Assembly: GCA_009782785.1 (NCBI GenBank)
Contig: WRIJ01000009.1
Coordinates: 25,111 to 89,110 of the forward strand
From: Propionibacteriaceae bacterium
GTDB taxonomy: Bacteria; Actinomycetota; Actinomycetes; Propionibacteriales; Propionibacteriaceae
Direction: 5' to 3'
DNA length: 64,000 nt
Below, piece by piece: positions 5,982 to 60,400 of this stretch. Both the position numbers and the translations under genes were made by a program. Every line of letters starts with the position of its first letter. Position 1 is the stretch's first letter. The notes under the pieces are model-generated. The model had not been told where the DNA came from. It searched no databases and saw nothing but the letters and a program-made list of their open reading frames with translations.

Positions 5982-6235
5982 GTAAGAAAACACAGTGTGA
6001 AACAGTGGTCATCACAAGGATCAAGTCTTCGATTGGCGCCAAGAGGAATCATCGTGAAACCTTGAGGTCGTTGGGTTTGAGAAAAATCGGTGACCAGGTG
6101 ACTCGTGAATTGGATCCTATTACCAAAGGCATGGTGCGTACCGTGTCACACATGATCATTGTTGAGAAGACCGAGACCCCCAAGGACAAGCTGACGAAAG
6201 TCGAGCAGGTTGAGCGTGCAAAGGAAGGCGAATAA
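5978..6235 (+). CDS. rpmD: 50S ribosomal protein L30
   Basis: 85-aa ORF with a GTG start overlapping the rpsE stop (GTGA). L30 core ([27 protein letters not shown]) plus a C-terminal extension. Confidence 0.9.
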
Positions 6236-6675
6236 TGGCTCTACAGATTCATCATCTCCGCCCAGCTGAAGGAGCACACACCAAGAAAACCCGTGTAGGT
6301 CGTGGTGAAGCATCTAAAGGTAAAACTGCAGGTCGCGGTACGAAAGGTACCGGCGCTCGTAAGAACGTACCGCTGTACTTCGAGGGTGGCCAGATGCCAT
6401 TGCATCGCCGAGTACCAAAACTGCGCGGTTTCGCTAGCCCCTTCCGTGTGGATTACCAGGTGGTCAATGTTGCGCGCATTGAAGAAATGTTCCCCCAAGG
6501 TGGCACGATCGGTGTAGAAGACCTTGTCAAGAAGGGTTTGGTTCGTAATGCATCGCGTGTCAAGGTGCTTGCGAATGGTGAGTTGAACGTCAAACTGGAC
6601 GTCACAGCTCACGCCTTCTCCGATAAGGCGAAAGAAAAAATCGAAAAGGCCGGTGGGTCCGTCACGACACTGTAG
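6235..6675 (+). CDS. rplO: 50S ribosomal protein L15
   Basis: 146-aa ORF containing [17 protein letters not shown]... Confidence 0.95.
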
Positions 6676-6726
6676 GCACAAGAGCCTGTCGTGGACTGAT
6701 ACCCTAGGTGAGGTGAGGAGAAAAAT

Positions 6727-8031
6727 ATGCTGAGTGCGATCAGGAATGTTTTTAGGTCTGGTGATCTCAATAAGAAGATTCTATTCACGCTCTTCATCGT
6801 TGTGATCTTCCGTTTGGGTTCGACTCTTCCGGTCCCCAATGTGAACATGGTCAATCTCTCGGGATGTGTGAAACAAGCAGCAGAAGCCAGTGATGAAACT
6901 GCTGGACTCTTCTCGATGATCAACCTGTTCTCTGGTGGAGCGATGTTGCAGATGTCGGTTTTTGCCCTCGGCATCATGCCGTACATCACCGCAAGCATCA
7001 TCATGCAGCTCATGACTGTTGTGGTTCCCCGCCTGGAAACCCTCAAAAAGGAGGGGGCATCAGGTACGGCCAAGATCACCCAATATACTCGCTATCTCAC
7101 TGTTATTCTGGCGGTGTTGAACGCGACCACCTATGTTTCGATGGCCGTCAATAAGCAGATTTTTAGAAGCTGCCCCGACGATGTTGTTCACTCGAATGAA
7201 CTTTTCCCAATTGTTGTCATGATCCTCACGATGACCGCTGGTACAGGTATGGTCATGTGGCTTGGTGAGCTCATCACTGATCATGGTGTGGGCCGAGGCA
7301 TGTCGATCCTCATCTTCACCCAAATCGCGGCTCGTTTCCCGGATTCTTTGTGGCAGATTCAACAGCAGAAAGGCTGGTTCCTGTTCCTGCTGGTTTTGGC
7401 CATTGGTTTACTGGTGATGGTGGGCATCATCTTCATGGAGCAAGGTCAACGCCGCGTTCCTGTTCAATACGCGAAACGCATGGTCGGGCGCAAGATGTAC
7501 GGCGGTTCCAAGACCTATATCCCACTCAAAGTGAACCAGTCTGGTGTTATCCCGGTCATCTTTGCTTCATCGATTTTGTACCTACCGTCGATGTTTGCTC
7601 AAATGTTCCCCACATCGAAGGTGTCGATCTTCATCGGGCAATACTTCGTTAAAGGCTCCGAATGGCCCTATAACGTCCTGTTCTTCCTGCTAGTGGTGTC
7701 CTTCTGTTACTTCTATGTGTCGATCACGTTCAACCCTGTGGAGATCTCAGACAATATGAAGAAGTACGGCGGATTCATCCCCGGTATCCGAGCGGGAGCC
7801 CCGACAGCTCGATACTTGAAGTACGTCCTGAGTCGACTGACTTTCCCCGGTTCACTCTATTTGGGTATCGTGGCTCTGATACCGACTTTAGCCTTCGTAC
7901 TCGTGGGTGCATCACAGCAATTCCCCTTCGGTGGTACATCAATCCTGATTGTTGTCGGTGTTGGTCTTGATACGGTCAAGCAGATCCAGTCACAACTCGA
8001 GCAGCGCTCCTACGAGGGCTTCCTTAAATGA
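6727..8031 (+). CDS. secY: Preprotein translocase subunit SecY
   Basis: 434-aa polytopic ORF containing LFSGGAMLQMSVFALGIMPYITASIIMQL. Conserved position after rplO. Confidence 0.97.
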   Translation: MLSAIRNVFRSGDLNKKILFTLFIVVIFRLGSTLPVPNVNMVNLSGCVKQAAEASDETAGLFSMINLFSGGAMLQMSVFALGIMPYITASIIMQLMTVVVPRLETLKKEGASGTAKITQYTRYLTVILAVLNATTYVSMAVNKQIFRSCPDDVVHSNELFPIVVMILTMTAGTGMVMWLGELITDHGVGRGMSILIFTQIAARFPDSLWQIQQQKGWFLFLLVLAIGLLVMVGIIFMEQGQRRVPVQYAKRMVGRKMYGGSKTYIPLKVNQSGVIPVIFASSILYLPSMFAQMFPTSKVSIFIGQYFVKGSEWPYNVLFFLLVVSFCYFYVSITFNPVEISDNMKKYGGFIPGIRAGAPTARYLKYVLSRLTFPGSLYLGIVALIPTLAFVLVGASQQFPFGGTSILIVVGVGLDTVKQIQSQLEQRSYEGFLK

Positions 8032-8122: not shown

Positions 8123-8271
8123 GTCATTCCGCGGAGGGCACCAGCCCGACTTGGCAGGAATCCAGGTAAACGATCAGCCCTGAAGAATAGTCTGATGGCA
8201 ATGACTAACCACCGATGGTCACCACCAGGGTCAGTGTGATTTCTGGACCCTGCGACTTCGCGCAGGGTGAC
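8123..8271 (+). repeat. Family-A palindromic TIR mini-element, copy A1 (149 bp)
   Basis: Begins GTCATTCCGCGGAG and ends CGCAGGGTGAC (ends fit GTCAYYCYGCG in inverted orientation). Homologous by eye over its full length to 8480-8642 and, reverse-complemented, to 31053-31200. Confidence 0.85.
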
Positions 8272-8280
8272 GGTAGTAGT

Positions 8281-8441
8281 GTCCATTGACCGCAATTGTG
8301 TGATCGGGAGCACGGGTTGTCGTTGCGTTGTGACTCACCATGCAAACCCAGATCAGTGCGTGAAGTAGAGTGACCAGCGTACAAGCGGTCACTACGCGAC
8401 GTTTCTCGACACCCACCATCAGGCGGTAGCGGTCAATAGAC
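8281..8441 (-). repeat. Family-B TIR mini-element, copy B1 (161 bp)
   Basis: Flanked by GTCCATTGACCGC (8281-8293) and GCGGTCAATAGAC (8429-8441), an inverted pair matching at 12 of 13 positions. The reverse-complemented body aligns with 30538-30700. Confidence 0.8.
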
Positions 8442-8479
8442 GACCCGGAACGGTCATTCCGCAGAGCAGTACCAACCAC

Positions 8480-8642
8480 ATCATTCCGCGGAGGGCACCA
8501 GCCCGACTTGGCAGGAATCCAGGTAAACGATCAACCCTGAAGAAGAGTCTGATGGCAATGACTAACCACCGATGGTCACCACCATGGCCAGTATGATTTC
8601 TGGACCCTGCGAGCCTTCGCTTCGCTCAGGCCGCAGGGTGAC
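8480..8642 (+). repeat. Family-A mini-element, copy A2 (163 bp)
   Basis: Direct repeat of A1 about 357 bp downstream. Same arms and body, with a longer loop in the right-hand hairpin. A solo arm GTCATTCCGCAGA lies at 8453-8465. Confidence 0.85.
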
Positions 8643-8750
8643 GGGGGTGGCGTCGACAAGGAACCGTCCCTTTGTGACTCGTGCAGGGAGACGGGGGTGG
8701 TGCTCCGCAGGGTGATGGAGGTGGTGGCGCACAGGGTAATGGAGGTGACC
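8633..8750 (+). repeat. Degenerate tandem array of GCAGGGTGAYGGRGGTGG (4 units)
   Basis: Units read at 8633, 8683, 8707 and 8731. This is the reverse complement of the C-rich arrays at 30706-30790 and 49015-49068. Confidence 0.6.
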
Positions 8751-8841
8751 TCGACCTGCGCTTCAGAGTTTATGGAATCTTTGGTGTCTGAGAGATCCTT
8801 GACTATATTCGTGAGTCGTGAATAAGTCGAAGGGCCCGAAT

Positions 8842-14186: not shown

Positions 14187-15977
14187 ATGTCAAAGATTCT
14201 TGCGGCTGTCGCTTGGCCTTATGCCAATGGTCCGCGCCATATCGGCCACGTCTCAGGTTTTGGGGTTCCTTCAGATGTTTTTGCTCGCTACCAGCGTATG
14301 ATCGGTAACGATGTGCTCATGGTGTCGGGTTCTGATGAGCACGGTACAGCGATCCAGGTGCAAGCAGATCGGGAAGGCCTCACCCCCCAGCAGACTGCTG
14401 ACAAGTATCACTCCATCATCTGTGAAGAGCTTCAACAACTCGGACTCACCTATGATTTGTTCACTCGAACAACCACAAACAACCACTGTGAGGTTGTCCA
14501 AGAGCTCTTCCGAGCCCTGCACGCCAATGGATATGTGGTCCCGCACAAAGGAATGGGAGCTATTTCTCCGAGTACGGGGCGTACCCTGCCTGATCGCTAT
14601 ATCGAAGGAACCTGCCCACTGTGCAAGTCTGAGGATGCTCGTGGTGATCAGTGCAATTCTTGCGGCAAGCAGTTGGATCCCATCGATTTGATCAACCCTC
14701 GATCATCCCTGGATGGGGAGGTGCCTGAGTTTGTTGAAACTGAGCATTTCTTTCTCGATCTTCCTGCACTGGCGCAAACACTGCGCACATGGTTGGATAC
14801 TCGCCAAGATTGGCGTCCCAATGTGTTGAACTTCTCGCTCGAATTGCTCAAGGATCTCAAGCCTCGAGGGATCACCCGCGACCTGGATTGGGGGATTCGT
14901 GTGCCCATTGATGGATGGCGCGACAATCCGATGAAATCTATCTATGTCTGGTTTGATGCGGTCATCGGCTACCTCTCTGCGTCAATAGAGTGGGCTCTGC
15001 GGCAAGGAGACCCGCAAGCATGGCGCGAGTGGTGGCAGAATCCTGAAGCACAGTCGTACTATTTCCTCGGCAAAGACAACATCACCTTCCATTCGGTCAT
15101 CTGGCCAGGGATACTCTTGGGCGCTAATGGTCAAGGGGATCGTGGTGGGGAACCCAGCACTTTTGGCGAGCTGAATCTTCCCACAGAAGTGGTGTCATCA
15201 GAGTTCCTCATGATGGGTGGTGGGAAGTTTTCCACCTCCTACAACAGAGTGATTTATGTCCGTGATTTCTTGAAAGAGTTTGGCCCAGATGCACTGCGTT
15301 ACTACATTGCTGTGGCCGGGCCGGAGAACACTGACACTGTGTTCACTTGGGAGGAGTTTGTTCGCCGTATCAACACTGAACTGGCGAACGAATGGGGTAA
15401 CCTCGTTAATCGCTCGATTTCTATGGCACATAAGAACAATGGAGTTATTCCCACCCCTGGTGAGCTCACCGAGATTGACACTCGAGTTTTGGACACTGCT
15501 CGTCAAGGCTTTGAGGTGGTTGGTGATCTGCTGTCCAAGGCAAAGTTCAAGGCGGCGATCACTGAAGCAATGCGGGTAGCATCTGCAGCTAATCGTTACC
15601 TCTCCGAAACTGAACCGTGGAAGCTGAAAGATAATCCAACTCGCCGAGATACTGTCTTACATACGACTCTCCAAGTGGTCAGTGATGTCAACACCATGCT
15701 CACGCCTTTCCTTCCTCACGCCTGCCAGAAGGTGTACGAAGCCTTGGGGGGTACGGGAGTGTGGGCTGCACAGCCAGAGATTCGCCACGTCAGTGAGGAC
15801 GGCCAAGACCCCTATCCGATCTTAACTGGTGACTATGATTCGCAATTGGCTTTTTGGAAGTCTATCCCTGTTGAGGTTGGCCGGGTGTTGAACAAACCGG
15901 AACCGCTCTTCCCGAAACTGGATGAGTCCTTGGGTGAAACTGGCCCATCATGGGCACCCATATCTGTCGATGGTTGA
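14187..15977 (+). CDS. metG: Methionine--tRNA ligase
   Basis: 596-aa ORF with [13 protein letters not shown] (HIGH), Zn knuckles CPLC...CNSC, and a KFSTS (KMSKS-type) loop. Confidence 0.95.
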
Positions 15978-16009
15978 TTATCTATCGGTGGTTGATGCAC
16001 TCCCTCCTT

Positions 16010-16059
16010 GTCACCCTGCGGAGCCCACTAGGGCGACTCGCAGTGCTCCGCGGAATGAC
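16010..16059 (-). repeat. Minimal family-A-related element (50 bp): both arms joined by a 24-nt core
   Basis: GTCACCCTGCGGA-gcccactagggcgactcgcagtgc-TCCGCGGAATGAC. The same core occurs at 35238-35273 and, reverse-complemented, at 46246-46281. A further solo arm (GCTTCGCTCCGCAGAATGAC) lies at 16101-16120. Confidence 0.75.
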
Positions 16060-16137
16060 GGGAGAGGCGCGGCGGTTTTTGCGAGTGCCAGCCGGTCAAG
16101 GCTTCGCTCCGCAGAATGACAGGGCTGGTGCCATCAG

Positions 16138-27674: not shown

Positions 27675-27903
27675 GGGAGCTGTGCGAGGTCACCCACCTG
27701 AAACCATGTTCATGGCGATCATTGTGCTGGGTGCCTCTGTGTGTAGGAGCCGTGCCATGGCGCTGGACAATTCCTGCTAATCTTGATGGTGTGCAACAGT
27801 GAGTACCGCTTGGAGTCATTCCACTAGGGGGGCTTTCTCAGCGTCGGCAGTGTGTAGTGCACTGGCGAATTTGTCGCGATTGAACAAGGGAAGGACCCAT
27901 TTC

Positions 27904-28281
27904 ATGACATCAAAAATCTCCACAGTGAGAAAAACTCTCGTAGCAGCAGCCCTTGCAGTATTTGTCGCACTCCCATTGTCGGCCTGTGGCAGCACATCCG
28001 ATGACCCTATCGTGGGCAAGTGGGAAGTCATAGAAGTAGATGGAAAATCTATCGACATGATAGCATGGTCCATGTCTATTGATTTCAAGGCAAATGGGAA
28101 ACTGATAGCAATCCATTATGGTGACAAGATCACAGGAACTTGGACTACCGAGGGTACGAAAGTGACTATCAAGGATTCCCGGGAAACCATGGTCTGCGAT
28201 TACACGGTTGCAACAGGAAAGCTCATGCTTAATGACTGTGATGGCGTGGTTGGATCGTCGTTGACACTCGTACCAGCGTAG
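27904..28281 (+). CDS. Lipoprotein, lipocalin-like (paralog 3)
   Basis: MTSKISTVRKTLVAAALAVFVALPLSACGS lipobox, with GGGAAGGA upstream of the ATG at 27904. The N-terminal extension of the track ORF from 27799 is unlikely. Confidence 0.75.
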   Translation: MTSKISTVRKTLVAAALAVFVALPLSACGSTSDDPIVGKWEVIEVDGKSIDMIAWSMSIDFKANGKLIAIHYGDKITGTWTTEGTKVTIKDSRETMVCDYTVATGKLMLNDCDGVVGSSLTLVPA

Positions 28282-28354: not shown

Positions 28355-28589
28355 TCAACTGGGTAGAACGAGCTGGTGATGGAAAGCTCAGCTCTTGTGG
28401 GATGCTACCGAGGTGGGTGTCTCTGTGTGTAGGTGCTGTGCCATGGCGCTGGACAATTCCTGCTAATCTTGATGGTGCGCAACAGTGAGTACCGCTTGGA
28501 GTCATTCCACTAGGGGGGCTTTCTCAGCGTCGGCAGTGTGCAGTGCACTGGCGAATTTGTCGCGATTGAACAAGGGAAGGACCCATTTC

Positions 28590-28967
28590 ATGACATCAAA
28601 AATCTCCACAGTGAGAAAAACTCTCGTAGCAGCAGCCCTTGCAGTATTTGTCGCACTCCCATTGTCGGCCTGTGGCAGCACATCCGATGACCCTATCGTG
28701 GGCAAGTGGGATGTGACTGAAGTAGAAGGAATATCTATCGCCGGGTCAGGTACATCCATGTCTTTCGAATTCAAGGCAAACGGGAAAATGACAGCCACGA
28801 CCGACGGAGACAAGGGCCAAGGAACCTGGACTGTCGCTGGGAACAAGGTGACTATTAAGGATCGCGAAGAAACCATGGTCTGCGATTACACGGTTGAAAC
28901 AGACAAGCTCATGCTCAATGACTGTGATGGTTTGGGTGGCCTGTCGTTGACACTCGTACCAGCGTAG
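28590..28967 (+). CDS. Lipoprotein, lipocalin-like (paralog 4)
   Basis: Same signal peptide and lipobox as paralog 3. The mature core is diverged. Confidence 0.75.
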   Translation: MTSKISTVRKTLVAAALAVFVALPLSACGSTSDDPIVGKWDVTEVEGISIAGSGTSMSFEFKANGKMTATTDGDKGQGTWTVAGNKVTIKDREETMVCDYTVETDKLMLNDCDGLGGLSLTLVPA

Positions 28968-29061: not shown

Positions 29062-30546
29062 GTGATGGAAAGCTCAGTTCTTGTGCGCGTACGCGTTGCC
29101 CCCTCGCCGACAGGTGACCCCCATGTGGGGACCGCCTACATGTCGCTGTTCAATTGGGCGTACGCACAGAAAACCGGTGGACAATTCGTACTGCGCATCG
29201 AAGACACCGATCAAGCAAGATATGTGGAAGGCTCCGAGAAGCAGATCTTCGACCTGTTGGCGTGGCTCGGTTTGACCTGGGATGAGGGTCCCGATATTTC
29301 CGGCCCGTACGCCCCGTACCGCCAATCGGAACGCCTCGACACCTATCGCCCGTACGTGGATCAACTCATCGAGGCCGGACACGCGTACTACTGCTGGTGC
29401 TCTTCGCAGCGCTTAACCCAGATGAGGGATGAGCAGGCCAAAGCGAAACTGTCCACCACTGGGTACGACCGGCTCTGCTATGGCAAGACACGTGAAGAAC
29501 GTGCCCAGCTTCCCGGGTTCAGTGAAACCCCGGTCGTACGCATGCTCATTCCTGATGATATGGACCTGGGTTTCGTGGATATGATTCGTGGTCAGATCAG
29601 TGCTCCGCGCCCCGATGATCAGGTCATACTGAAAGCCGATGGATTCCCGACCTACCATATGGCCGTGGTGGTCGATGATCATCTGATGGGGATCACCCAT
29701 GTCGTACGTGGGGAAGAGTGGATCTCCTCCACGCCAAAACACATCCTGCTCTATCAGTGGCTCGGGTGGGAGGTGCCGGCGTGGTGCCATATGCCGCTGC
29801 TGCGCAATACCGACAAGTCGAAGATTTCGAAACGCAAGAATCCAGCTGCGCGGTTAGTGTGGTTCCAGGAGGAAGGTTATCTACCTGAGGCCCTGTTGAA
29901 CTTCCTGCAACTCATGGGATACCCACCCACCGACGACCAAGAAGTGTGTTCCTTCGAGGATTTTGTGGCCGATTTTGACTGGGCGAAAGTTAATACGGTC
30001 GGTCCAGTGTTTGATGTGAAGAAACTGGACTGGCTCAATGGGCACTATCTTCGCGCGCTGAGTGAAGACGAGTTGGCTCGACGGATCGTGGACTATATCG
30101 AGACCTATCAGGCAGATGGGCTTTCAAGGCTTCTCGGAAAACGGAGTGCTGATTGGAAGCAGGTTGTTCGCCAGGCTGTTCCTCTGATTGCTCCACGGCT
30201 TGTGACCCTGAAAGAGGCTTTAGAGAAGGTACGGTTCCTGTTGGTTGATTTCGTCGCAGTCGATGATGCTGCGCGGGCCAAAGTTGCTGAGGATGCGCCG
30301 ATGGTGTTGCCCCTGGCTGCCGAGGTTCTCGAATCCTTGGTGGACTTCCAAGCCTCTGCGATCCAGGAGGCTCTCGTGACGGGACTCGTTGACGAGCAAG
30401 GATTGTCCAAGAAAACGGTATTCGCCCCGATCAGGGTTGCGATCGCTGGGGCATTGGTGTCCCCACCCCTGTTTGAGTCCATGGAGATTCTCGGGCGCGA
30501 CGAGTCATTGAAACGTCTGCGTGAGTTTCTTCGGTGTGTCCATTGA
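29062..30546 (+). CDS. gltX: Glutamate--tRNA ligase
   Basis: 494-aa ORF with RVAPSPTGDPHVGTAY (HIGH-type) and KISKRK (KMSKS-type). The start could be the GTG at 29062 or the ATG at 29065. Confidence 0.95.
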   Translation: MMESSVLVRVRVAPSPTGDPHVGTAYMSLFNWAYAQKTGGQFVLRIEDTDQARYVEGSEKQIFDLLAWLGLTWDEGPDISGPYAPYRQSERLDTYRPYVDQLIEAGHAYYCWCSSQRLTQMRDEQAKAKLSTTGYDRLCYGKTREERAQLPGFSETPVVRMLIPDDMDLGFVDMIRGQISAPRPDDQVILKADGFPTYHMAVVVDDHLMGITHVVRGEEWISSTPKHILLYQWLGWEVPAWCHMPLLRNTDKSKISKRKNPAARLVWFQEEGYLPEALLNFLQLMGYPPTDDQEVCSFEDFVADFDWAKVNTVGPVFDVKKLDWLNGHYLRALSEDELARRIVDYIETYQADGLSRLLGKRSADWKQVVRQAVPLIAPRLVTLKEALEKVRFLLVDFVAVDDAARAKVAEDAPMVLPLAAEVLESLVDFQASAIQEALVTGLVDEQGLSKKTVFAPIRVAIAGALVSPPLFESMEILGRDESLKRLREFLRCVH

Positions 30547-30700
30547 CCGCAGTTGCTTGACGGTGAGTGTCTAGAAACATCGCGTAGTGACTGCTTATGC
30601 GCTGGTCACTGTTATTTCTCGCACTGATCTGGTGAGGTTTGCACGGTGAGTCACAACGCAACGATTTCATGGGCACACTGCTAGGCAGTCGCGGACCGAC
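30538..30700 (+). repeat. Family-B TIR mini-element, copy B2 (about 163 bp)
   Basis: Starts with GTCCATTGACCGC, identical to 8281-8293, and overlaps the last two sense codons and the stop of gltX. The body aligns with the reverse complement of 8281-8441. The right end is degenerate. Confidence 0.78.
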
Positions 30701-30705
30701 TGTAT

Positions 30706-30790
30706 CCCCACCCTTGTCACCCCGCAGAAGAAACACCCCACCCCCGTCACCCTGCGGAGCGAAGATCGCCCCACCCCCGTCACCCTGCGG
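30706..30790 (+). repeat. Tandem array (3 units, about 25-34 bp) of CCCCACCCCCGTCACCCTGCGGA
   Basis: Units read at 30706, 30731 and 30765. The last unit merges into the arm of the next family-A copy. Confidence 0.65.
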
Positions 30791-30949
30791 ACGGGTGACG
30801 AGCTAAGCGAGGAACACCGTCTCGCAGGGTCCAGATATCACAGTCATCATGAGTAAGAGTCTGCCTAACCCGTCCACCATCAACAGACTCCACAACCATG
30901 GTTAATCGCCTGTCTAGATTCTGCGAGTCGCTTCGCTCCGCAGAATGAC
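30779..30949 (-). repeat. Family-A mini-element, copy A3 (171 bp, long-loop hairpin variant)
   Basis: GTCACCCTGCGGACGGGTGACGAGCTAAGCGAGGAACACCGTCTCGCAGGGTCC ... GGATTCTGCGAGTCGCTTCGCTCCGCAGAATGAC. The long hairpin differs by one base from the one at 49069. An extra partial arm lies at 30962-30979. Confidence 0.8.
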
Positions 30950-31052
30950 AGGGTTGAGGGTGTCGCTCCGCAGAATGACGTGGAAGGTGTCACCCTGCGG
31001 AATCACGCTGCACCTCCGTCACCCTATGAATGAGCGAAGACCACCAACCCCG

Positions 31053-31200
31053 GTCACCCTGCGCGAAGTCGCAGGGTCCAGATATCACACTTGCCATGGT
31101 GGTGACCGTCGGTGGTGGGTGATGCTCCCCAGACTCTTCTTCGGGGATCTCGCTGATCTGGATTCCTGCCAAGTCGTGCTGGCGCACTCCGCGGAATGAC
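31053..31200 (-). repeat. Family-A mini-element, copy A4 (148 bp)
   Basis: Its reverse complement aligns over the full length with A1 and A2 (8123-8271, 8480-8642). Confidence 0.85.
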
Positions 31201-31234
31201 AGTTTCGAGTCATCCATGGACCACTTCGTACCGT

Positions 31235-32979: not shown

Positions 32980-32988
32980 CGAGGGTGG

Positions 32989-33080
32989 GTCATTCCGCGG
33001 AGTGCGCCAGCACGACTTGGCAGGAATCCAGACTAGTGATCAACCACAATGACCGAGTCTGTCAATGATCACCGGTGGGT
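32989..33080 (+). repeat. Family-A mini-element, truncated copy (left arm plus body, no right hairpin)
   Basis: GTCATTCCGCGGAGTGCGCCAGCACGACTTGGCAGGAATCCAG... matches the reverse complement of 31150-31200. It starts 10 nt after the glnS stop and ends about 17 nt before the purC start. Confidence 0.75.
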
Positions 33081-35008: not shown

Positions 35009-35281
35009 GTCATTCCGCGCCAGCGCGCCAGCGCGACTCGCGGAATCCAGGCTCCACAATCACCACGGTTGTGGAGTCTGTTCATGGTGGTTACATTCGG
35101 GAGACTCACCAATCCGCTTAATGTGATTCCTGGATTCTGTTTCTCACTCCGTTCGTTCAACCACTTCCTTGACCTCGACATGAATGCAAGCATCCCTGCC
35201 CTCGGTCTTCGTCGTGGTGCGAGTCGCGAAGCCTGTGCTGCGGAGCCCGCTAGGGCGACTCGCAGTGCTCCGCAGAATGAC
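35009..35281. repeat. Repeat island: about 273-bp element bounded by two GTCATTC(C/T)GCG arms in inverted orientation
   Basis: Left arm GTCATTCCGCG-ccagcgcgccagcgcgact-CGCGGAATCC. Internal hairpin CTCCACAA-N9-TTGTGGAG. Right part carries the core CTGCGGAGCCCGCTAGGGCGACTCGCAGTGCTCCGCAGAATGAC. An extra GCAGAATGAC lies at 35288-35297. Confidence 0.75.
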
Positions 35282-35311
35282 GGAGAAGCAGAATGACGGG
35301 GTTGGGGTGGC

Positions 35312-45215: not shown

Positions 45216-45808
45216 GTGATGAACAGGCATGTGGGGACAGCGTCGACCCTCATGTGGGTGACCAATCGAGCAATGGTGGGGGGCTCACGCCTGGCGATGC
45301 CGATATTGTCACCAGGCAGTTGGGGCGTACTCCCAGAGGAGCAGTGAAAGTCGCATGGCGATGCCCACAAGGGCACCCTGGCGTGGTGATGACGAGGCCG
45401 CGTTTGAGCGATGGCACACCCTTTCCCACACTGTATTACCTCACCTGCCCGGCAATCGTGAAAGCATGCTCGACCTTGGAAGCTGACGGTTTGATGGCTT
45501 CGTTGACTGCGCGTTTAACTGACGATGTTCAATTCGCTGCGGCGTACGGACAAGCCCATGACTCCTATCTGGTGGATCGTGAAACTTTGGCTCAGGAATT
45601 GGGGATCGAGGTGCCAGAGATTTCAGGGATTTCGGCTGGCGGAATGCCATCGCGGGTGAAATGCTTGCACACTGTGGTGGCACACAGTTTGGCCAAGGGA
45701 CCTGGTGTGAATCCTTGTGGGGATGAGGCCTTGGAGGCCATCGGAGTCTTTTGTCGATCGGGGTGTGCCCAGGTTTGTGGGCCTGCTAGTGAGCGAGAGG
45801 TGTCATGA
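45212..45808 (+). CDS. DUF501 domain-containing protein
   Basis: 198-aa ORF containing RCPQGHPGVVMTRPRL..GTPFPTLYYLTCP. Conserved eno/FtsB-like/DUF501/ppx synteny. Confidence 0.8.
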   Translation: MSDEQACGDSVDPHVGDQSSNGGGLTPGDADIVTRQLGRTPRGAVKVAWRCPQGHPGVVMTRPRLSDGTPFPTLYYLTCPAIVKACSTLEADGLMASLTARLTDDVQFAAAYGQAHDSYLVDRETLAQELGIEVPEISGISAGGMPSRVKCLHTVVAHSLAKGPGVNPCGDEALEAIGVFCRSGCAQVCGPASEREVS

Positions 45809-46899
45809 GAGTAGGGGTTATTGATTGTGGTACGAACACCACCAGGATCCTCATCTGTGATGGGGATGTTTCCGGGGTTCCTCAAGAGGTTGTGAGGGAG
45901 TTGAGATTTACCCGGTTGGGGGAGGGGGTTGATCGAAGTGGGAGTTTCACTAGTGACGGGCTGAAGCGTACTTTTGCGGCTGTTGAAGAATATGCTCAGA
46001 TGTTGGAGGCGTACCAGGTGGACACGGTACGTTTTGTCGCAACCTCAGCTGCCCGCGATGTACACAACCGTGAAGATTTTATTAGTGGGGTGAGAACCCG
46101 CCTGGGTATCGAACCGGAGATTATCTCAGGCGAGGAAGAGGCATACTTGAGTTTTCTTGGAGCACTCACTTCTTCCGCCATGGCATCCGATCCACCTCTG
46201 GCTCCGGTCACCTTGTGTGAAGCGGAGCTCCCTCCGGTCACCCTGTGGAGCACTGCGAGTCGCCCTAGCGGGCTCCGCAGCGCAGGCTCCGCGACTCGCA
46301 GGGTCCACGATCAACCACCAAACAACGATCAATCGGTCCTCGTCGTTGACATCGGTGGTGGGTCAACCGAACTGATTCGCGGGTTCCTCTCGGGGCGCCT
46401 CGAATCGAGAGTCAGTCTTGATATGGGGTCAGTTCGTCTTCGTGAACGGTACCTTCACGGTGATCCACTCACTGTTCCCCAGATCGATCAAGCACGAAGC
46501 TTCGTTAGTGAGCTACTGGATGGTTGTGGTGTTGCCATCGGCGATGTGGATGTCTTTATTGGAGTTGCAGGTACGTTGACTTCACTGTCGGGTATGAACC
46601 AATCTTTGGATTCTTATGATCGTACGAAAGTACACAATTCCACCCTGGAGGTGGATGACATCTTAACCCTGCAGGAGCACTTGTTGACCTTGAGTGTGGA
46701 TGAGGTCATCAACCAGTATCCGAGTCTCCCAGCACCACGCGCCGAGGTGATTGGTGCTGGAGCACTCATTGCTAGCGAGATTGCTCGCAGAGTCGGGCGT
46801 ACGATGATTGTTCGCGAAACAGATATTTTGGATGGTGCTGCCATGCAACTCTTCAGAGAGCCGCGATCGTCCACATGGCACAAGCCCATCGAGGTGTGA
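45805..46899 (+). CDS. ppx: Ppx/GppA family phosphatase (exopolyphosphatase), carrying an in-frame repeat-derived insertion
   Basis: 364-aa ORF containing VIDCGTNTTRIL, GEEEAYLSFLGA and LVVDIGGGSTEL. The segment at 46207-46306 matches the intergenic repeats. Confidence 0.87.
   Translation: MRVGVIDCGTNTTRILICDGDVSGVPQEVVRELRFTRLGEGVDRSGSFTSDGLKRTFAAVEEYAQMLEAYQVDTVRFVATSAARDVHNREDFISGVRTRLGIEPEIISGEEEAYLSFLGALTSSAMASDPPLAPVTLCEAELPPVTLWSTASRPSGLRSAGSATRRVHDQPPNNDQSVLVVDIGGGSTELIRGFLSGRLESRVSLDMGSVRLRERYLHGDPLTVPQIDQARSFVSELLDGCGVAIGDVDVFIGVAGTLTSLSGMNQSLDSYDRTKVHNSTLEVDDILTLQEHLLTLSVDEVINQYPSLPAPRAEVIGAGALIASEIARRVGRTMIVRETDILDGAAMQLFREPRSSTWHKPIEV
46207..46306 (-). repeat. Family-A-related repeat segment inside the ppx coding sequence
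   Basis: Carries two GTCACC(T/C)TGTG arms and the core GCACTGCGAGTCGCCCTAGCGGGCTCCGCAG (reverse complement of 35240-35270 and 16018-16048). Ends CGCGACTCGCAGGGTCC. Confidence 0.8.
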
Positions 46900-46915: not shown

Positions 46916-46988
46916 GCCCCCATAGCCCAACGGCAGAGGCAGTCGACTTAAAATCGATCCAGTGTCGGTTCGAATCCGACTGGGGGCA
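46916..46988 (+). tRNA. tRNA with anticodon UAA (nominally Leu) but a class-I fold (5-nt variable loop)
   Basis: Manual cloverleaf: acceptor GCCCCCA/TGGGGGC, D arm GCCC-AACGGCAG-AGGC, anticodon arm GTCGA-CTTAAAA-TCGAT, variable loop CCAGT, T arm GTCGG-TTCGAAT-CCGAC, discriminator A. CCA is not encoded. Confidence 0.72.
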
Positions 46989-47416: not shown

Positions 47417-47461
47417 CCTGGCACTGTTTGGGGCACGTCAGCCGAGGAAGAGGTATGAACA

Positions 47462-47614
47462 ATGACAGCAGCAGAAATCCGAGTTCGACTGAAACAGGAA
47501 GAAGACTTGCTTAACAAAGCCAGACAAGATGAGTGTGATACTGCCCGAACCTTGTCCGACCTCCAAGACTACAAGCAGGCCCACGACAGTGAGGTAGTGG
47601 GGCCAGCAACTTGA
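47462..47614 (+). CDS. Possible small coiled-coil protein (50 aa)
   Basis: ATG preceded by GAGGAAGAGG. Translates to MTAAEIRVRLKQEEDLLNKARQDECDTARTLSDLQDYKQAHDSEVVGPAT. Below the track cutoff and has no homology signal. Confidence 0.2.
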   Translation: MTAAEIRVRLKQEEDLLNKARQDECDTARTLSDLQDYKQAHDSEVVGPAT

Positions 47615-47618
47615 CCCT

Positions 47619-48032
47619 CTAGACGAATGGGTTGATGACGACAATTCCGTTGTAATCCTGTCCGTGGGAAAGGTCTTCCGACAGGAGTTGTTGACATCCG
47701 CTAGCCCGGGCGGCTTCGATGATCCCTGCATCCCAGTACGACACACCGAATTGTTGCCTCGTGTGCAGAGCACGGCGCATCACGGTAAGGGTGTTGGCTT
47801 GAATAGGGAAACGGGTGAAAGACTCAACAAATTGTGTTGCTTGCTCATGGGTGAGTGGATCAGTGCGCGTTGCTCTAGTCGCCTGCACATAGAACTCTTG
47901 AAGCACCTGGACAGATAGGGCGATCCCACCGTCTTCTAGGATTCCACGGGCAATGGTTGCCTTGGGTTCTTCCTGATCGTCGCGCGATATCGCGTACAGT
48001 AGAATATTGGTGTCACAGAAGCGCACGGTCAT
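47619..48032 (-). CDS. vapC: Type II toxin VapC (PIN domain ribonuclease)
   Basis: 137-aa ORF with the PIN acidic residues in context (FCDTNILLYA..., ...LLSEDLSHGQ). Confidence 0.85.
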   Translation of the reverse strand: MTVRFCDTNILLYAISRDDQEEPKATIARGILEDGGIALSVQVLQEFYVQATRATRTDPLTHEQATQFVESFTRFPIQANTLTVMRRALHTRQQFGVSYWDAGIIEAARASGCQQLLSEDLSHGQDYNGIVVINPFV

Positions 48033-48345: not shown

Positions 48346-48418
48346 TGGAGCTAACGGGATTCGAACCCGTGGCCTCTTCCATGCCATGGAAGCGCGCTAC
48401 CAACTGCGCCATAGCCCC
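48346..48418 (-). tRNA. tRNA-Ala (anticodon GGC)
   Basis: The reverse complement folds as GGGGCTA-TG-GCGC-AGTTGGTA-GCGC-G-CTTCC-ATGGCAT-GGAAG-AGGCC-ACGGG-TTCGAAT-CCCGT-TAGCTCC-A. The G3:U70 Ala identity pair is present. Confidence 0.95.
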
Positions 48419-48498: not shown

Positions 48499-49008
48499 AT
48501 GCCACGACCGAAGAATTCCACTGAGTTGATTGAAGCTGCCACCAGCGAGTACGACAAGCTTATGGCTCTCGTCACCTCGATCCCAGCCGAACAACAAGAA
48601 CTTGAGTTTGCTTTTGAGGACCGTGATCGCACAGTACGCGACGTACTAGCTCATTTGAGCGAATGGCACTACATGATGAGTAGGTGGTACGACCAGGGGA
48701 TGTCTGGCGAGAAGCCCATTATGCCGGCTGATGGGTACACGTGGAAAACACTTCCCGAACTCAATTTGAGAATTTGGGAAGAAGCCCAGGAGATCCCACT
48801 CGATAAGGCCCGAGCAGAACTCGACGAAACCCACCAGGTCATGATGACCCTGATCACCCACCACAGCGATGAGGAACTGTTCACCAAGAAGTATTATCCA
48901 TGGACGGGTACGACCTCGCTGGGTGCGTACCTCATCTCTTCGACCTCCAGCCACTACGACTGGGCTTCTAAGAAACTGAAGAAAGCCATCAAAACCTGGA
49001 AGGGCTGA
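48499..49008 (+). CDS. ClbS/DfsB family four-helix-bundle protein (DUF1706)
   Basis: 169 aa from the ATG at 48499, with AGGAGGGAGG upstream. Contains ...ELIEAATSEYDKL..., DVLAHLSEWH and EELFTKKYYPWTGTTSLGAYLISSTSSHYDWASKKLKK. Confidence 0.72.
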   Translation: MPRPKNSTELIEAATSEYDKLMALVTSIPAEQQELEFAFEDRDRTVRDVLAHLSEWHYMMSRWYDQGMSGEKPIMPADGYTWKTLPELNLRIWEEAQEIPLDKARAELDETHQVMMTLITHHSDEELFTKKYYPWTGTTSLGAYLISSTSSHYDWASKKLKKAIKTWKG

Positions 49009-49068
49009 CATTTACCCCGCCCACCAGTCACCAACTTTCCCCGTCACGACGTACGTGCCTCCATTTTT

Positions 49069-49237
49069 GTCACCCTGCGGACGGGTGACGAGCGAAGCGA
49101 GGAACACCGTCTCGCAGGGTCCAGATATCACACTGACGACGGTGGTGACCGCCGGTGGTTAATAGTCGCCAGCAGACTCACTGTCGTGGTTGATCGCTTG
49201 TCTGGATTCCGCGAGTCGCTTCGCTCCGCGGAATGAC
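49069..49237 (-). repeat. Family-A mini-element, copy A5 (169 bp, long-loop variant)
   Basis: The body and left-hand arm are identical to 49502-49650 except for one base seen by eye (T/C in GGTTGA(T/C)CGC). Preceded by degenerate C-rich units at 49015-49068. Confidence 0.85.
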
Positions 49238-49248
49238 CGTTCTGGGTC

Positions 49249-49490
49249 GTTCATTGACCGCGACCCCCTGGTGACGAGTGTCTTTAAACGTCGCGTGGTG
49301 ACTGTATCTCTGTTTTCGTCACCCACAGACTCACCAGTGGTGGCAAACCGTTTGTCTGGATTCCGCGACTTTGCGCGGAATGACGGATATGGGTCACACT
49401 GTGCACATCATGGCCGTATCGTCTCCATGGAGGTGAGTGACAACGCAGCGATTCCTCATGGTCACTGTGGAGCAGTTGCGGTCGGTTGGC
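49249..49490 (+). repeat. Family-B mini-element, copy B3, interrupted by a partial family-A insertion (about 49318-49384)
   Basis: Ends are GTTCATTGACCGC and GCGGTCGGTTGGC. Internal blocks GTGTCTTTAAACGTCGCGTGGTGAC and GGTGAGTGACAACGCAGCGA match B1/B2. The nested hairpin is GGATTCCGCG-ACTTTG-CGCGGAATGAC. Confidence 0.7.
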
Positions 49491-49501
49491 ACTCCACTCA
49501 C

Positions 49502-49650
49502 GTCACCCTGCGGAACGAAGTGACTCGCAGGGTCCAGATATCACACTGACGACGGTGGTGACCGCCGGTGGTTAATAGTCGCCAGCAGACTCACTGTCGT
49601 GGTTGACCGCTTGTCTGGATTCCGCGAGTCGCTTCGCTCCGCGGAATGAC
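49502..49650 (-). repeat. Family-A mini-element, copy A6 (149 bp)
   Basis: Near-identical to A5 apart from a shorter hairpin loop. Confidence 0.85.
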
Positions 49651-49710
49651 AGGGTATGTCGCTTCGCTCCGCGGAATGACAGGGTATGTCGCTTCGCTCC
49701 GCGGAATGAC
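49628..49710 (+). repeat. 30-bp tandem repeat, 2.8 copies (GTCGCTTCGCTCCGCGGAATGACAGGGTAT)
   Basis: Perfect abutting copies at 49628, 49658 and 49688 (the last is truncated). They reiterate the arm of copy A6. Confidence 0.9.
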
Positions 49711-49861
49711 CGGTGAGGGGCAGTGCCGCCCACCATGGATGAGTGCGGTATGCGGAATGACTGGGTGGTGACTGCCAGTGCTAACGGGAGCGAGGTTTAA
49801 CGAACGTGGGAGTATGTCATCGTTTAATTGATCGTTGACACGGGGTTATGTCAGCGATTTC

Positions 49862-50302
49862 TTACTGGCAGTTGACAGCATCTTCCAAGCAAGCTGGGAA
49901 TATCGGATTGTTTTGGTCGTACCCGCATTCCGAGTATCCATTCCAATTGAGGCGGTATTTTCCTGCTGCGACTGCTTCTTCAAGACTCCCGACGTGAATT
50001 ACAGAAGAGCCGTTCTTGAAAGCTCCAATGAGGTTAGCGTCGATAAGCTCATCAGCATCCAAGATGCCATTCAGATTATTGTCCTTGTGGGAACACAAGT
50101 GATAAACGGAACCCTTCTCAACCCAATAGACCTCACAATTCTGCGAGAAAGCACAAGCAACCCTCTGCATCTCGGTCATATTCTCGACTGATGTCGGGTT
50201 ACCTGCCGAGCACCCACTGGCAAGCATCATGAGGATTCCTGCAGTCGTTGCTAGGAGTGTACGGGTGACAAGGGATCGGCGTGAAGAAGAGTGATTGTTC
50301 AT
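49862..50302 (-). CDS. Cys-rich lipoprotein, unknown function
   Basis: 146 aa from the ATG at 50302. Lipobox MMLASGCSAG. 7 further Cys residues in the mature part. Confidence 0.6.
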   Translation of the reverse strand: MNNHSSSRRSLVTRTLLATTAGILMMLASGCSAGNPTSVENMTEMQRVACAFSQNCEVYWVEKGSVYHLCSHKDNNLNGILDADELIDANLIGAFKNGSSVIHVGSLEEAVAAGKYRLNWNGYSECGYDQNNPIFPACLEDAVNCQ

Positions 50303-57052: not shown

Positions 57053-57360
57053 GTGCAGAAGAACTGGAAATCTACGAAGCCGAACTTGAGCTTGCCATCT
57101 ATCGGGAATACAAGGATGTTGTGGGAATCTTCAAGTGGGCGGTGGAGACAGAACGACGTTTCTATCTCTGCAATAAGGTCGATTTGAAAGTACGTACTGA
57201 GGGTGGTGACGTGTACTACGAGGTCTCAATGGAGGATGCGTGGGTGTGGGATATGTACCGCCCAGCGCGTTTCGTGAAGACAGCCAAGGCGCTCACATTC
57301 CGTGATGTTGCTATTGAGGAAATCGCCCACAGCGACCTGCAGGTCCCTGAGCAGGGATAG
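57049..57360 (+). CDS. DUF2469 domain-containing protein
   Basis: 103 aa. Its ATG overlaps the rnhB stop (ATGA). Contains MSAEELEIYEAELELAIYREYKDVV. Conserved rplS-lepB-rnhB-DUF2469 synteny. Confidence 0.85.
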   Translation: MSAEELEIYEAELELAIYREYKDVVGIFKWAVETERRFYLCNKVDLKVRTEGGDVYYEVSMEDAWVWDMYRPARFVKTAKALTFRDVAIEEIAHSDLQVPEQG

Positions 57361-57441
57361 TTTCCTGGTTGGTCAATGGATTCTGCGACTGCGCGCAGAA
57401 TGACGGGGGTGGTGGATCCTGCAGGTCCCTGAGCAGGGATA
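57336..57441 (+). repeat. Perfect 24-bp direct repeat (CCTGCAGGTCCCTGAGCAGGGATA at 57336-57359 and 57418-57441) flanking a solo repeat arm
   Basis: The 58-bp spacer contains GGATTCTGCG-ACTGCG-CGCAGAATGAC followed by GGGGGTGGTGG, which is the family-A arm plus the G-rich motif. Confidence 0.85.
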
Positions 57442-57443
57442 AT

Positions 57444-60400
57444 CTATTCGCTGCGTAGCGCTTCGACTGGATCTTTACGGCTTGCTGCTGAACTGGGAAT
57501 CAACCCAGCGAGGAAGGTCAGCGCCATGGACACCGCAATGAGAATGAGGGCGGCGTTGAGAGGCAACCGAGCGATACGATCCACGTCGGTGAGTTTATAG
57601 ACCAACGGATTGGCAATGATCGTCAAACCTAGGGTGATGAGTACACCCATGAGCCCGGCAACGAAACCAACAATGAGTGTCTCTGCATTGAATACATTAC
57701 CTATGTCGCGTTTGGAGGCACCGAGTGCTCGCAGGATGCCAATCTCTTTACGCCGTTCCAACACGGAGATGTAGGTGATGACCCCGATCATAATAGAGCT
57801 CACCACCAATGAGATAGACACGAAGGCAACAAGCACTGCTGAAATCTTGTCAATGATGTCGGTCACAGAGGTCATGAGAGTCCCGACAATATCGGTGTAC
57901 GTAATGACTTTGTCTTCGTCTTCTTTCTTCATCCGGTCGTTGTAGGAGTCGAGAGAATCCAGGACAGCTTGTTTGGCTGCGAAGTCATTGGGATAAATAT
58001 CGATCGAGTACGGGTCGTCAAGTTCTGCGTACCCCAAAGTCTGAAGATTAGACTCCACACTGTGGCGCTGGCGGTTCATCATGGACATCAGCAGTGAGGT
58101 CAACTGTTCAGGGTCAAGATCAAAGTCGAAAATGTCTGCGAACCTTTGTGGGTCAATATCCATCGCCGACGACAGTTGGCTGGTGAGTTGGCTCATGGAT
58201 GCTTGCATAGCGATCGACAATTGGCTCTGGAGATTGCCCATCATGGAAGTGAGCATGGTTTGCATGGTGGTCTGCATGTATCCAGCAAGGGCTTGGGAAG
58301 CTTGAGCTTCGAGTGTGTCGGTGTTGATGGTGTTCATCAGCCGCCCCATGAATACTGCCTGGTTCTGGGGTTGGTTGAACCATTCTGCAAAGGAGCCGCC
58401 AATATCGCCGGGAAGATTAGGCATAGTGGTGGGGAATTCGCTCGGCATTGAGGTCGGTAACCCCGTGGGCAGCGAACTGGGTAGCGCTGTGGGCCCCGTG
58501 GTGGGCAGTGCAGTGGGCAGCATAGTGGGGGCACTCGTCGGATCACCAGTGGGATCCCCAGTAGACCCAGGATCACTAGGTTCGCTGGAGGTTTGAGCAG
58601 ATGGCTCAACCGATTGCTGCGGCAAGGCTGAGGGGGAAGGTTGGGTGGGAGTCGTAGGGTCGCTTTGGGGGGCAGGAGGAATCACTGGCAGGGTGGCGGA
58701 ACCCATGGTGTCTCGCAGATAGTCAGAAAGGGTTTGGGTGAGTAAATCTGTGAGTGCTTCATCAGAGACTTCGATGCTCATTCCTGAGAGCATGGCAGTT
58801 AAGTCAGGGGGTGGAACCTGCGGCATAGACCCACTCATACTCGACAGATCCATTGACCCTAGTGAGGGCCCTGAAGGCATCGACAACCCAGAGAAGTCGA
58901 CATTGAACATTGAACCGAAAGCATCCGCGTCGATATTGAGCAGCGAAGAGAAATCAAAGTCGCCCATCCCAGGGTTCTCTGCTTCCTCCTCAAAGGTTAT
59001 TCCAGAAAAAACATTCAGCTCCGGGTTAGCCAACTGGGCGCGTACGATATCGGAATCAGCGGCTTGGTCAATGAGGTGGTAGACCATGCTCATGGGGTAG
59101 TACAGTCCCGGCCGGAGCATCACATTCGTGGAGTCTTCCGCAGAGGTCACCACACCCACAACCCTCAGTGTTGTTCCAGAAGAAACCACATACCTCATCC
59201 AGGTCTCGTCATTGCTACGATCAGTCCAGAGCTTGTATTTCGCGTCGTACTCGTAAAACCTGGCCGCATTGACAAGCTTGAAGGTCACCGACATCACATC
59301 GTCATAGGACAATCTCACCCTATTATCTGGAGTGTGAATAGGTTTATTCTCACTCATGTCCTGGATCATCTGGTCCAGCTCTGCAGGATCACGTAGACCC
59401 ATGGTGTAGAGGGCCATATCCGAAATGCCCCCAGAGCCAGTCACGACGAGAACGAGCTCATCAGGGCCTTGAGGCCAACGGCCAGCCAGGACGTCGTACT
59501 GGTCGGATATCAATGACATGTCATCGGGTAGTGAATTGAACACATTGGTCGTCATGCCCATATTCATCAGTGCTGAGGATGAATCACCACCAAAACCTAG
59601 GGAGGTAAACATCTTGTTCGGGTTGACCTGGCGTACTTCGTTGGTGGTGTCGGTAGAAAAAATCTGCGGGGTGACGTTGTAGTTGTATTGAATTGACCGT
59701 ACGTGGTCACTGATCCCAGATTCGGGAGAATCGAGATAGGTTTTCAAAGACTTTAAATCATTGGAGGCGACCTCTGAGAGCATGCGGGTGATCATGGCAA
59801 CCTCATGGAGGTCCGAATCTCCAGTGTCGTGAATAGAGTCGTGGATGTCCTGACCTGCCATGATCATACTTGTCATGTCGATGCCTTGGGTCTGGATTTG
59901 TAGAGGATAAAGCGAGAGAGTGTTTTCCTCCACCCCACGAATATAGGCATTAACCCCGTTAGCCAAGGCGAGGATCGTGGCAATGCCAACAATGCCAATG
60001 GATCCAGCGAAACTGGTCATGAGGGTGCGACCCTTTTTCGTCATGAGGTTTCTGAAACTCAAGGAAATAGCGGTCAGGAAGCTCATGGAGGTGCGGCGAG
60101 CTTTCTTCGCATGGCGGACGTTGCTGTGTGGATGGTACGGGTCGGTGTCATCAACGACTTTTCCATCGCGCAGAGAAATAGTTCGAGTGGCGTACTCTTC
60201 AGCTAGTTCCGGGTTATGGGTGACCATGATCACCAAGCGCTGTTGAGCAATATCCTCAAGCAGGTTCATCACATGAACGCCAGTTTTGGAGTCGAGAGCA
60301 CCCGTGGGCTCATCAGCGAGAAGGATTTCAGGGTCGTTGATCAAGGCGCGGGCGATAGCCACGCGTTGCATCTGACCACCAGAGAGCTGATTGGGGCGTT

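Follow-up and report, generated by a model that had tools for sequence, protein, structure and literature searches.

We analyzed a 64,000-nt stretch of DNA, hereafter the window, from a Propionibacteriaceae metagenome-assembled genome (MAG; GenBank assembly GCA_009782785.1, contig WRIJ01000009.1, positions 25,111 to 89,110 of the forward strand). Its gene content is housekeeping in character and comprises a ribosomal protein operon with secY, ackA-pta, metG, radA, gltX, glnS, purC, purQ, eno, ppx and sdhABC; Ppx has a 100% identical counterpart at NCBI, annotated as the exopolyphosphatase of a Propionibacteriaceae bacterium (MAG). Eight sites in the window carry copies of a family of hairpin-bearing repeats, nearly all directly 3′ of stop codons and four of them flanked by convergent gene pairs, and two additional sites lie in the next 7.7 kb. 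Here, we focus on the repeat island at 49015-49710, which a first-pass annotation had described as two kinds of element, A and B, arranged as A-B-A between tandem arrays. As the source is a MAG and repeats are prone to misassembly, an assembly artefact or chance similarity had to be weighed. This is hardly conceivable, since the islands are 100% identical across independent assemblies from separate data sets (JGI 3300002505 and ENA ERZ27257320), which rules out misassembly, and pattern counts lie far above those of shuffled sequences.

The module order and coordinates proposed for the island proved correct. On the plus strand, degenerate C-rich units (49015-49068), each composed of a spacer and an outer-arm half-site with GTCAC (at 49027 and 49043), precede a first A copy, A49a (49069-49237). 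A49a begins with a forward hairpin of what we term P type (49069-49124; GTCA-CCCTGCG-33-nt loop-CGCAGGG-TCCAG), the stem of which shows covariation. It continues with a core (49125-49201) containing an invariant CAGACT and a conserved GGTGGTGACC, and ends with an inverted hairpin of Q type (49202-49237), which on the minus strand reads GTCA-TTCCGCG-loop-CGCGGAA-TCCAG. The plus-strand segment that follows (49238-49501) holds an A-to-B linker, CGTTCTGGGTCGT, the B49 element proper (about 49249-49490), with a terminal inverted repeat CATTGACCGC...GCGGTC in its body, and a C-rich spacer. The second copy, A49b (49502-49650, plus strand), has a P hairpin with a 13-nt loop (49502-49537), the core and a Q hairpin (49615-49650), and is 99% identical to A49a over 127 nt. 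The near-identity noted earlier for the two local copies was borne out: a single mismatch in 127 positions separates 49111-49237 from 49524-49650, while the 5′ loops differ in length (33 nt in A49a versus 13 nt in A49b), a pattern that fits recent duplication or conversion.

All A copies share one layout, consisting of a P hairpin (GTCA-CCCTGCG-loop-CGCAGGG-TCCAG), a block CCAGAWATCA, a core with the invariant CAGACT and an inverted Q hairpin. In element A, two like hairpins converge on a core of ~77 nt. Element B, a spacer-type module of ~185 nt, separates a Q hairpin from the P hairpin that follows. At four or five sites, B begins after a linker that is conserved, GGAATGAC-CGTTCYGGGTCGT-CATTGACCGC; it has its own terminal inverted repeat, CCATTGACCGC...GCGGTCAATGG. 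The two arrays on either side mirror one another: the left-hand, C-rich one and the right-hand one with its 30-nt period (49628-49710, plus strand) both consist of tandem units of spacer plus outer hairpin arm that flank an A copy. The right-hand array has 2.8 copies with 100% matches, and its unit, made of outer arm CTCCGCGGAATGAC and spacer AGGGTAT, also takes in the distal part of the loop; an additional degenerate half-site lies beyond it at 49751-49761. Arrays of C-rich spacer plus left arm occur elsewhere, in Azoarcus and Gammaproteobacteria loci and in WRIC01 (24-nt period, 4.4 copies), a related Propionibacteriaceae MAG from the gut of a higher termite (naming per PMC7024585).

Two observations on base composition concern these arrays. 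On one strand, half-hairpin arrays are runs of G tracts, (GGGGAGTGGGTTGCGYAGGGTGAC)n (locus L124 of WRIC01, 14996-15100; window 49700-49790), which could in principle form G-quadruplexes. GC skew climbs sharply at the right edge of the island at 49015-49710.

As proposed, the A-B-A architecture recurs in inverted orientation. The partner island, 3′ of secY on the minus strand (8123-8760), reads on that strand as C-rich units (8643-8760), A8a (8481-8642), a half-site (8453-8463), B8 (about 8279-8467) and A8b (8123-8271). When 49015-49710 is aligned with the reverse complement of 8123-8750, the two are collinear from the C-rich units through the first A and B to the second A, and 74% of aligned columns are identical; BLAST of 49069-49650 against 8642-8123 gave E = 3e-37 over ~600 columns. 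The shared order is not superficial, the B bodies being homologous (83% over 80 nt, with a shared 20-mer block GGTGAGTSACAACGCARCGA). The two islands also agree by position, the 5′ loop of the first A being long and including GAGCGAAGCGARG, that of the second short and including CGAAGT.

One explanation for these features would be a mobile composite, ~650 bp long, whose two A copies mobilize the enclosed B and which moved as a block between loci. Such a unit would account for the collinear alignment of the whole in inverted orientation, for the long loop in the first A and the short loop in the second in both islands, and for the A-to-B junction CGTTCYGGGTCGT kept in four or five places. Other islands, however, show other orders. 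A third one, between gltX and glnS (30536-31225, plus strand), consists of B30 (30536-30705), half-sites (30706-30778), A30a (30779-30949), further half-sites (30950-31052), A31b (31053-31200) and a B-start fragment (31201-31222), and therefore reads B, half-sites, A, half-sites, A, truncated B. A fourth, on a neighboring contig (L125), has half an A, a B and a hairpin, and its B, B125, matches the other B copies in the 5′ half only.

Sequence identities are likewise difficult to reconcile with a block that moved intact. A copies are 99% and 94-96% identical within islands and ~70-78% identical between them, so that a composite would need later conversion in both islands; for the cores alone, identity is 99% between A49a and A49b, 94% between A8a and A8b and 62-75% between islands. 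The modules of one copy, moreover, have different closest relatives. In the segment identity matrix, A49a and A30a are 98% identical in the 5′ hairpin and 48% identical in the core, the 5′ hairpin of A31b is 100% identical to that of A8b, and the 3′ hairpins group A49a and A49b with A30a and A31b with A8a and A8b. Loop, core and 3′ hairpin thus have separate closest relatives, and modules reassort between copies. In both islands, the tract of high identity begins at the right arm of the 5′ hairpin, which places the boundaries of duplication or conversion in the hairpin loop.

The flanks and the orthologous site point the same way. No target-site duplications flank A49a, A49b, A30a, A31b, A8a, A8b or the A-B-A blocks. 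At the orthologous site in WRIC01, the spacer between the DUF1706 and DUF349 genes lacks B and contains one short A-like unit in opposite orientation, followed by a 24-nt half-hairpin unit repeated 4.4 times. Neither the 64-kb window nor ~10 kb of flanking contigs nor 45 kb of WRIC01 contains a transposase of any kind, and integrase, Y1_Tnp-type and DDE genes are missing from the annotated genes of the available DNA (window plus extensions). These comparisons show that fixed loci gain, lose and invert copies and that modules recombine at or near hairpins. Of the composite of ~650 bp proposed earlier, the A-B-A order and its inverted recurrence stand; a fixed mobile unit does not, given the other orders, the reassortment, the lack of target-site duplications and the orthologous site without B. 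We, therefore, regard movement of A-B-A as a block as unlikely, and a composite transposon fits the island less well than a mosaic array.

The first-pass annotation had also recognized a partial A copy within B49. This 67-nt segment (49318-49384, plus strand) is a true insertion and not part of the B consensus, as it is missing from B8, B30 and B125. It represents an internally deleted A that starts with GTCACCC, continues with the 3′ half of the A core (CAGACT) and ends with a perfect, short-looped Q hairpin (49356-49384) terminating in GGAATGAC. On its 3′ side follow GGATATGG and another GTCAC, the counterpart of a GTCAC internal to B itself; it looks as if an internally deleted A entered B49 at a GTCAC.

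A further element-derived insertion lies within a coding region. In ppx/gppA (open reading frame (ORF) 45805-46899), 141 nt at 46190-46330 on the plus strand, made of a P-type hairpin with a long loop module, add 47 codons in frame. These codons are missing from seven homologs of ~306 aa and directly precede the conserved DIGGGSTE motif. The ppx gene of WRIC01 (P0027; L124 10422-10539, WRIC01000001.1) has its own element-derived insertions at the same loop, with the hairpins reversed and the peptide LDPATSRRVTE repeated. Together, the insertions in the two MAGs point to independent hits, or inversion, at a tolerated or preferred site.

Hairpin loops themselves host recurrent material. A module of ~50 nt, CACTGCGAGTCGCCCTAGCGGGCTCCGCAGCRCAGGCTCCG, recurs inside loops with 88-96% identity, in the window at 16016-16061, 35238-35283 and 46237-46300 and in WRIC01 at 6140-6200 and 7285-7345 of locus L035 (WRIC01000003.1), indicating that loops act as insertion or recombination points. 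At the same WRIC01 locus (6130-7465), the 5′ part of A (hairpin plus CCAGATATCACACT) lies on both sides of a segment of ~1.06 kb. This segment has two minus-strand ORFs of 202 and 97 aa without Pfam match and looks like a gene cassette captured between hairpins.

To characterize the hairpins as such, we counted them and compared their stems. The full pattern GTCAYYCYGCG-N3-33-CGCRGRRTCCAG occurs ten times in the window versus zero expected, and half-site motifs number 47 versus 4.3 in shuffled sequences. Across 32 distinct hairpins of the lineage, three variable stem positions covary almost perfectly: the outermost pair is C-G in 13 and T-A in 19 with no mismatch, and the fourth pair is T-A in 19, C-G in 12 and T.G in one. 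P and Q stems are each compensated locally, while long-range pairing of P with Q would hold mismatches. The hairpins are clearly conserved as local stem-loops, under selection.

Compensatory variation of this strength might also reflect RNA structure, with A, B or both being noncoding RNA genes or structured 3′-untranslated elements such as mRNA stabilizers or small RNAs. Most copies are located just 3′ of stop codons, and A folds better than shuffled sequences (z = -4.1). The opposite strand of A, however, folds almost as well (z = -3.7), single-stranded B is not significantly structured (z = -1.7 and -0.5), and copies occur in both orientations relative to neighboring genes and, in ppx, in frame within a coding region. 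Half-hairpin tandem arrays make no sense as RNA structures, and the island at 49015-49710 has no promoter-like or terminator-like sites. With Rfam 15, the whole window yielded, at the gathering threshold, two tRNAs and nothing else, and 48900-49900 had no match even at E <= 10. A conserved helix in the A core was considered as a candidate; with two pairs showing double changes among seven sequences, covariation support is weak, and we do not claim a core structure. An RNA role as the reason for the repeats is, in sum, very unlikely.

The hairpins resemble a recently described class. The 28-nt Neisseria Transformation Sequence (NTS), CGTCATTCCCGCGMAVGCGGGAATCYRG, encompasses the dRS3 repeat and is the substrate of SsnA (Chenal et al. 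2025, PMC11893778). SsnA is a 94-aa single-domain GIY-YIG protein that binds and cuts NTS solely as single-stranded DNA and on one strand only; in NTS, a GTC before the palindrome and a C behind it are critical, cleavage persists when the loop is replaced or extended, and related hairpins of the Ssn-related motif (SRM) flank ssn homologs across bacteria (PMC11893778). The Q hairpin of the window, GTCATTCCGCG-loop-CGCGGAATCCAG, keeps the critical NTS flanks. More generally, the window hairpins show the oriented flanks characteristic of NTS/SRM hairpins (20-50 nt, with GTC(A/T) upstream of the palindrome and C-Y-R-G after it). Shared traits include the (C)GTCA...TCCAG flanks, stems starting with TTCC or CCCC and variable loops, as well as copies that are abundant, clustered with genes, present in both orientations and enriched in host-associated bacteria. 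In contrast to Neisseria NTS, the window stem is 1 bp shorter, a second stem type, CCCTGCG, is present, loops span 6-55 nt and host nested modules, and the host is a Gram-positive actinobacterium. Judged by sequence, the window hairpins would be variants of the NTS/SRM class rather than strict members.

We next turned to the distribution of the Q hairpin, scanning one genome per species. The matches listed, which do not include the source genome, comprised at least 116 loci from 73 genomes, mostly of other phyla and including Bacteroidota, several proteobacterial classes, Thermodesulfobacteriota, Chloroflexota, Patescibacteria and others. Units of a forward hairpin (ending in TCCAG), a spacer and an inverted hairpin (beginning with CTGGA) were found 142 times, in 54 of the 116 listed loci, often accompanied by outer half-hairpin plus C/G-rich tandem units (for example, L093, L107 and L115). 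In these other genomes, hairpins with the TTCCGCG stem and the same flanks, with other loops, do fit the published SRM pattern, with 84 matches in 48 loci among those listed (for example, CGTCATTCCGCGACTTGATCGCGGAATCCAG), and canonical NTS hairpins partner TTCCGCG-type hairpins within single units.

ORF clustering over the 116 loci for a co-occurring enzyme retrieved a small GIY-YIG cluster in three genomes and no transposase. In a Thiomonas MAG (L049), two Ssn-like GIY-YIG genes (PF01541, ~96 aa) lie in tandem, each immediately preceded by the 29-mer GTCATTCCGCGCGTAGTCGCGGAATCCAG. This 29-mer is identical to WRIC01 hairpins and two loop bases off the nested hairpin of the window. Within 5950-6800 of the Thiomonas locus, both GIY-YIG genes also have a 3′ inverted hairpin plus a G-rich spacer, and the second gene appears truncated. 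A search with the Thiomonas Ssn-like protein returned 3209 homologs, and none of the 120 best that were listed is labeled Propionibacteriaceae, a result that is uninformative on the source genome.

The arrangement of hairpins and modules invites comparison with known repeat systems. Neisserial intergenic mosaic elements (NIMEs) are defined as clustered arrays in which hairpins flank RS families, 50-150 bp in length, and as of 2007 were stated to be unobserved outside Neisseria (PMC1797815). Similarly, the window hairpins separate repeat families of 50-200 bp, the arrays adjoin genes and differ between syntenic loci, and RS-like modules have short terminal inverted repeats; B is comparable to the RS segments between dRS3 hairpins in NIME arrays. 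Unlike in NIMEs, the dRS3 pattern ATTCCCN8GGGAAT has no match in the window, which has a related form, ATTCCGCG...CGCGGAAT, instead; neither the A core nor B is related to Neisseria RS families by sequence, and the half-hairpin tandem arrays are an extra feature. Another comparison is offered by Rickettsia palindromic elements, single palindromes of 100-150 bp that are inserted in frame into protein-coding genes without destroying them. The ppx insertion is alike in being palindromic and in frame; the sequences are unrelated, and the Rickettsia elements do not form mosaics of hairpin pairs.

Two inverted palindromes with a spacer, as in A, are also the architecture of REPINs (PMC3337134, PMC3116915). 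A might accordingly be a classical non-autonomous transposon, either a miniature inverted-repeat transposable element of a DDE insertion sequence or a REPIN mobilized by a RAYT tyrosine transposase, with its hairpin ends as terminal inverted repeats. Its ends are 37-nt imperfect inverted repeats (~81% identical in A49b), and the deleted copy in B49 and the in-frame copy in ppx look like insertions of such an element. With the REP/BIME/REPIN-RAYT group of Enterobacteria and Pseudomonas, the window repeats further share mosaic arrays after gene 3′ ends and a presumed action as single-stranded DNA hairpins recognized by a single-copy domesticated enzyme. RAYT-associated REPs typically have a GTAG head, whereas the window hairpins start with GTCA. 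The paired stems have, moreover, diverged and keep their own local hairpins by compensatory changes rather than end-to-end complementarity, and target-site duplications were not found at the A copies. The available sequence lacks a Y1 or DDE transposase, and the hairpins match the Ssn-associated class, in which the associated enzyme, where known, belongs to the GIY-YIG nucleases rather than to the Y1 HUH transposases. We, thus, consider a transposon of this type quite unlikely.

Taken together, the island is probably a NIME/BIME-like mosaic of intergenic modules around NTS/SRM-class hairpins, shaped by hairpin-centered recombination and by local duplication or conversion. As such, it adds a lineage-specific case to a kind of intergenic repeat already known and is not a new system. 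In a possible mechanism, the hairpins would extrude in single-stranded DNA and be recognized by a hairpin-specific enzyme encoded elsewhere in the genome, for which an Ssn-type GIY-YIG single-strand nuclease would be the most likely candidate. A nick 5′ of GTCA, beside the outer arm of the hairpin, may then be followed by template switching, recombination or gene conversion among the many homologous hairpins. The outcome would be outer-arm arrays, local duplication or conversion of A and modules that are copied, stacked and shuffled. A-B-A may, in this scheme, derive from an (A-B)n-type array with local homogenization rather than from transposition of a fixed composite.

Several points weigh against the mosaic reading and its enzymatic part. 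The loop types shared by position between the two A-B-A islands leave room for a single en-bloc duplication of A-B-A. Four Q hairpins (A8a, A8b, A31b and the type at 32988) have a degenerate inner arm. The published SRM pattern, HGTCWYN(0-2)YYVSBRHN(0-5)WNVSBRGN(0-2)RNCYNB, has zero matches in the window (shuffle mean 0.6) and zero in the WRIC01 loci; in the window it fails because the P stem has T at the V position and loops are longer or differ at the penultimate base. It is for the zero matches to the SRM and exact dRS3 patterns that we speak of NTS/SRM-class variants. Ssn homologs have been reported mainly in Gram-negative bacteria (PMC11893778), and a GIY-YIG/Ssn gene is missing from all DNA covered here (the 64-kb window, ~10 kb of flanking contigs and 45 kb of WRIC01), so that the proposed link of this genome to Ssn is by analogy. 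A more far-reaching proposal, in which the arrays are the footprint of an active hairpin-centered copy-and-stack mechanism (Ssn-type nick plus template switching) in a Gram-positive lineage, is conceivable and for now doubtful.

The remaining copies in the window are smaller or solitary. Between metG and an Rce1-like gene, a small island (15998-16125, plus strand) is made up of hairpin arms and has the loop module CTGCGGAGCCCACTAGGGCGACTCGCAG. A solitary 3′ half of A, from CAGACT through a Q-type hairpin, lies between glnS and purC (32988-33061, minus strand), and an A copy with a very long loop insertion in its 5′ hairpin lies between purQ and a DUF3039 gene (35009-35300, minus strand). A solitary short hairpin, GTCATTCTGCGCGCAGTCGCAGAATCCA (57377-57430, minus strand), has a perfect 23-nt direct repeat, ATCCCTGCTCAGGGACCTGCAGG, on either side (57334-57451). 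It is the sole copy with a flanking duplication, and the 23-nt repeat itself holds a small palindrome. At the third island, the last codons and TGA stop of gltX (30520-30546) lie within the left end of B30, CCATTGACC plus a degenerate half-hairpin; the repeat, thus, supplies the end of the gene.

Searches with A and B beyond these loci found few or no relatives. A metagenome scan with a B-specific 20-mer returned two unrelated chance matches, the source itself not being recovered, which suggests that B is rare or lineage specific. A candidate for a diverged B in the related MAG (spacer X of L052) gave no convincing alignment with B and was discarded. Two scans of viral contigs for A-specific patterns had zero matches, and peptides translated from the repeats had no match in the literature.

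Among neighboring genes, a PIN-domain toxin gene with a small upstream partner (47438-48032) lies just upstream of the island at 49015-49710 and is probably a toxin-antitoxin pair. It sits between two tRNAs (46916-46988 and 48346-48418), where WRIC01 has other genes. A 300-nt direct repeat (27728-28027 and 28414-28713; 98% identical, 686 nt apart) belongs to two tandem paralogous genes for 160-aa lipocalin-like proteins (DUF5640/Lipocalin_4) and is unrelated to the hairpin family. Predicted 'proteins' of 109 aa (L117 10704-11152) and 54 aa (L121 13768-13932) fall inside repeat islands and are almost certainly spurious read-through of repeats.

NIME-type arrays have been thought peculiar to Neisseria, and the first description of Ssn/SRM hairpins, mostly in Gram-negative bacteria, dates from 2025. 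The Propionibacteriaceae MAGs show hairpins of the same class building elaborate arrays in a termite-gut-related actinobacterial lineage, which extends this recently described class to Gram-positive gut symbionts as far as the hairpins are concerned, with a nuclease of the Ssn type as the putative counterpart. The arrays display module shuffling, local homogenization, nested insertion, syntenic turnover and in-frame insertion into a conserved enzyme. Since the published SRM pattern misses the window variants, the family is probably more widespread than reported. Such arrays also break assemblies, create spurious ORFs and can alter gene ends, as in gltX and ppx. If the copy-and-stack mechanism were true, it would explain half-hairpin plus C/G-rich arrays from Actinobacteria to Proteobacteria and could place in-frame insertions in housekeeping genes, as in ppx, which is hit at the same loop in two species. 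Ssn/SRM would then be a cross-phylum mobile-repeat system comparable to RAYT/REPIN, with a role beyond modulating transformation in Neisseria.

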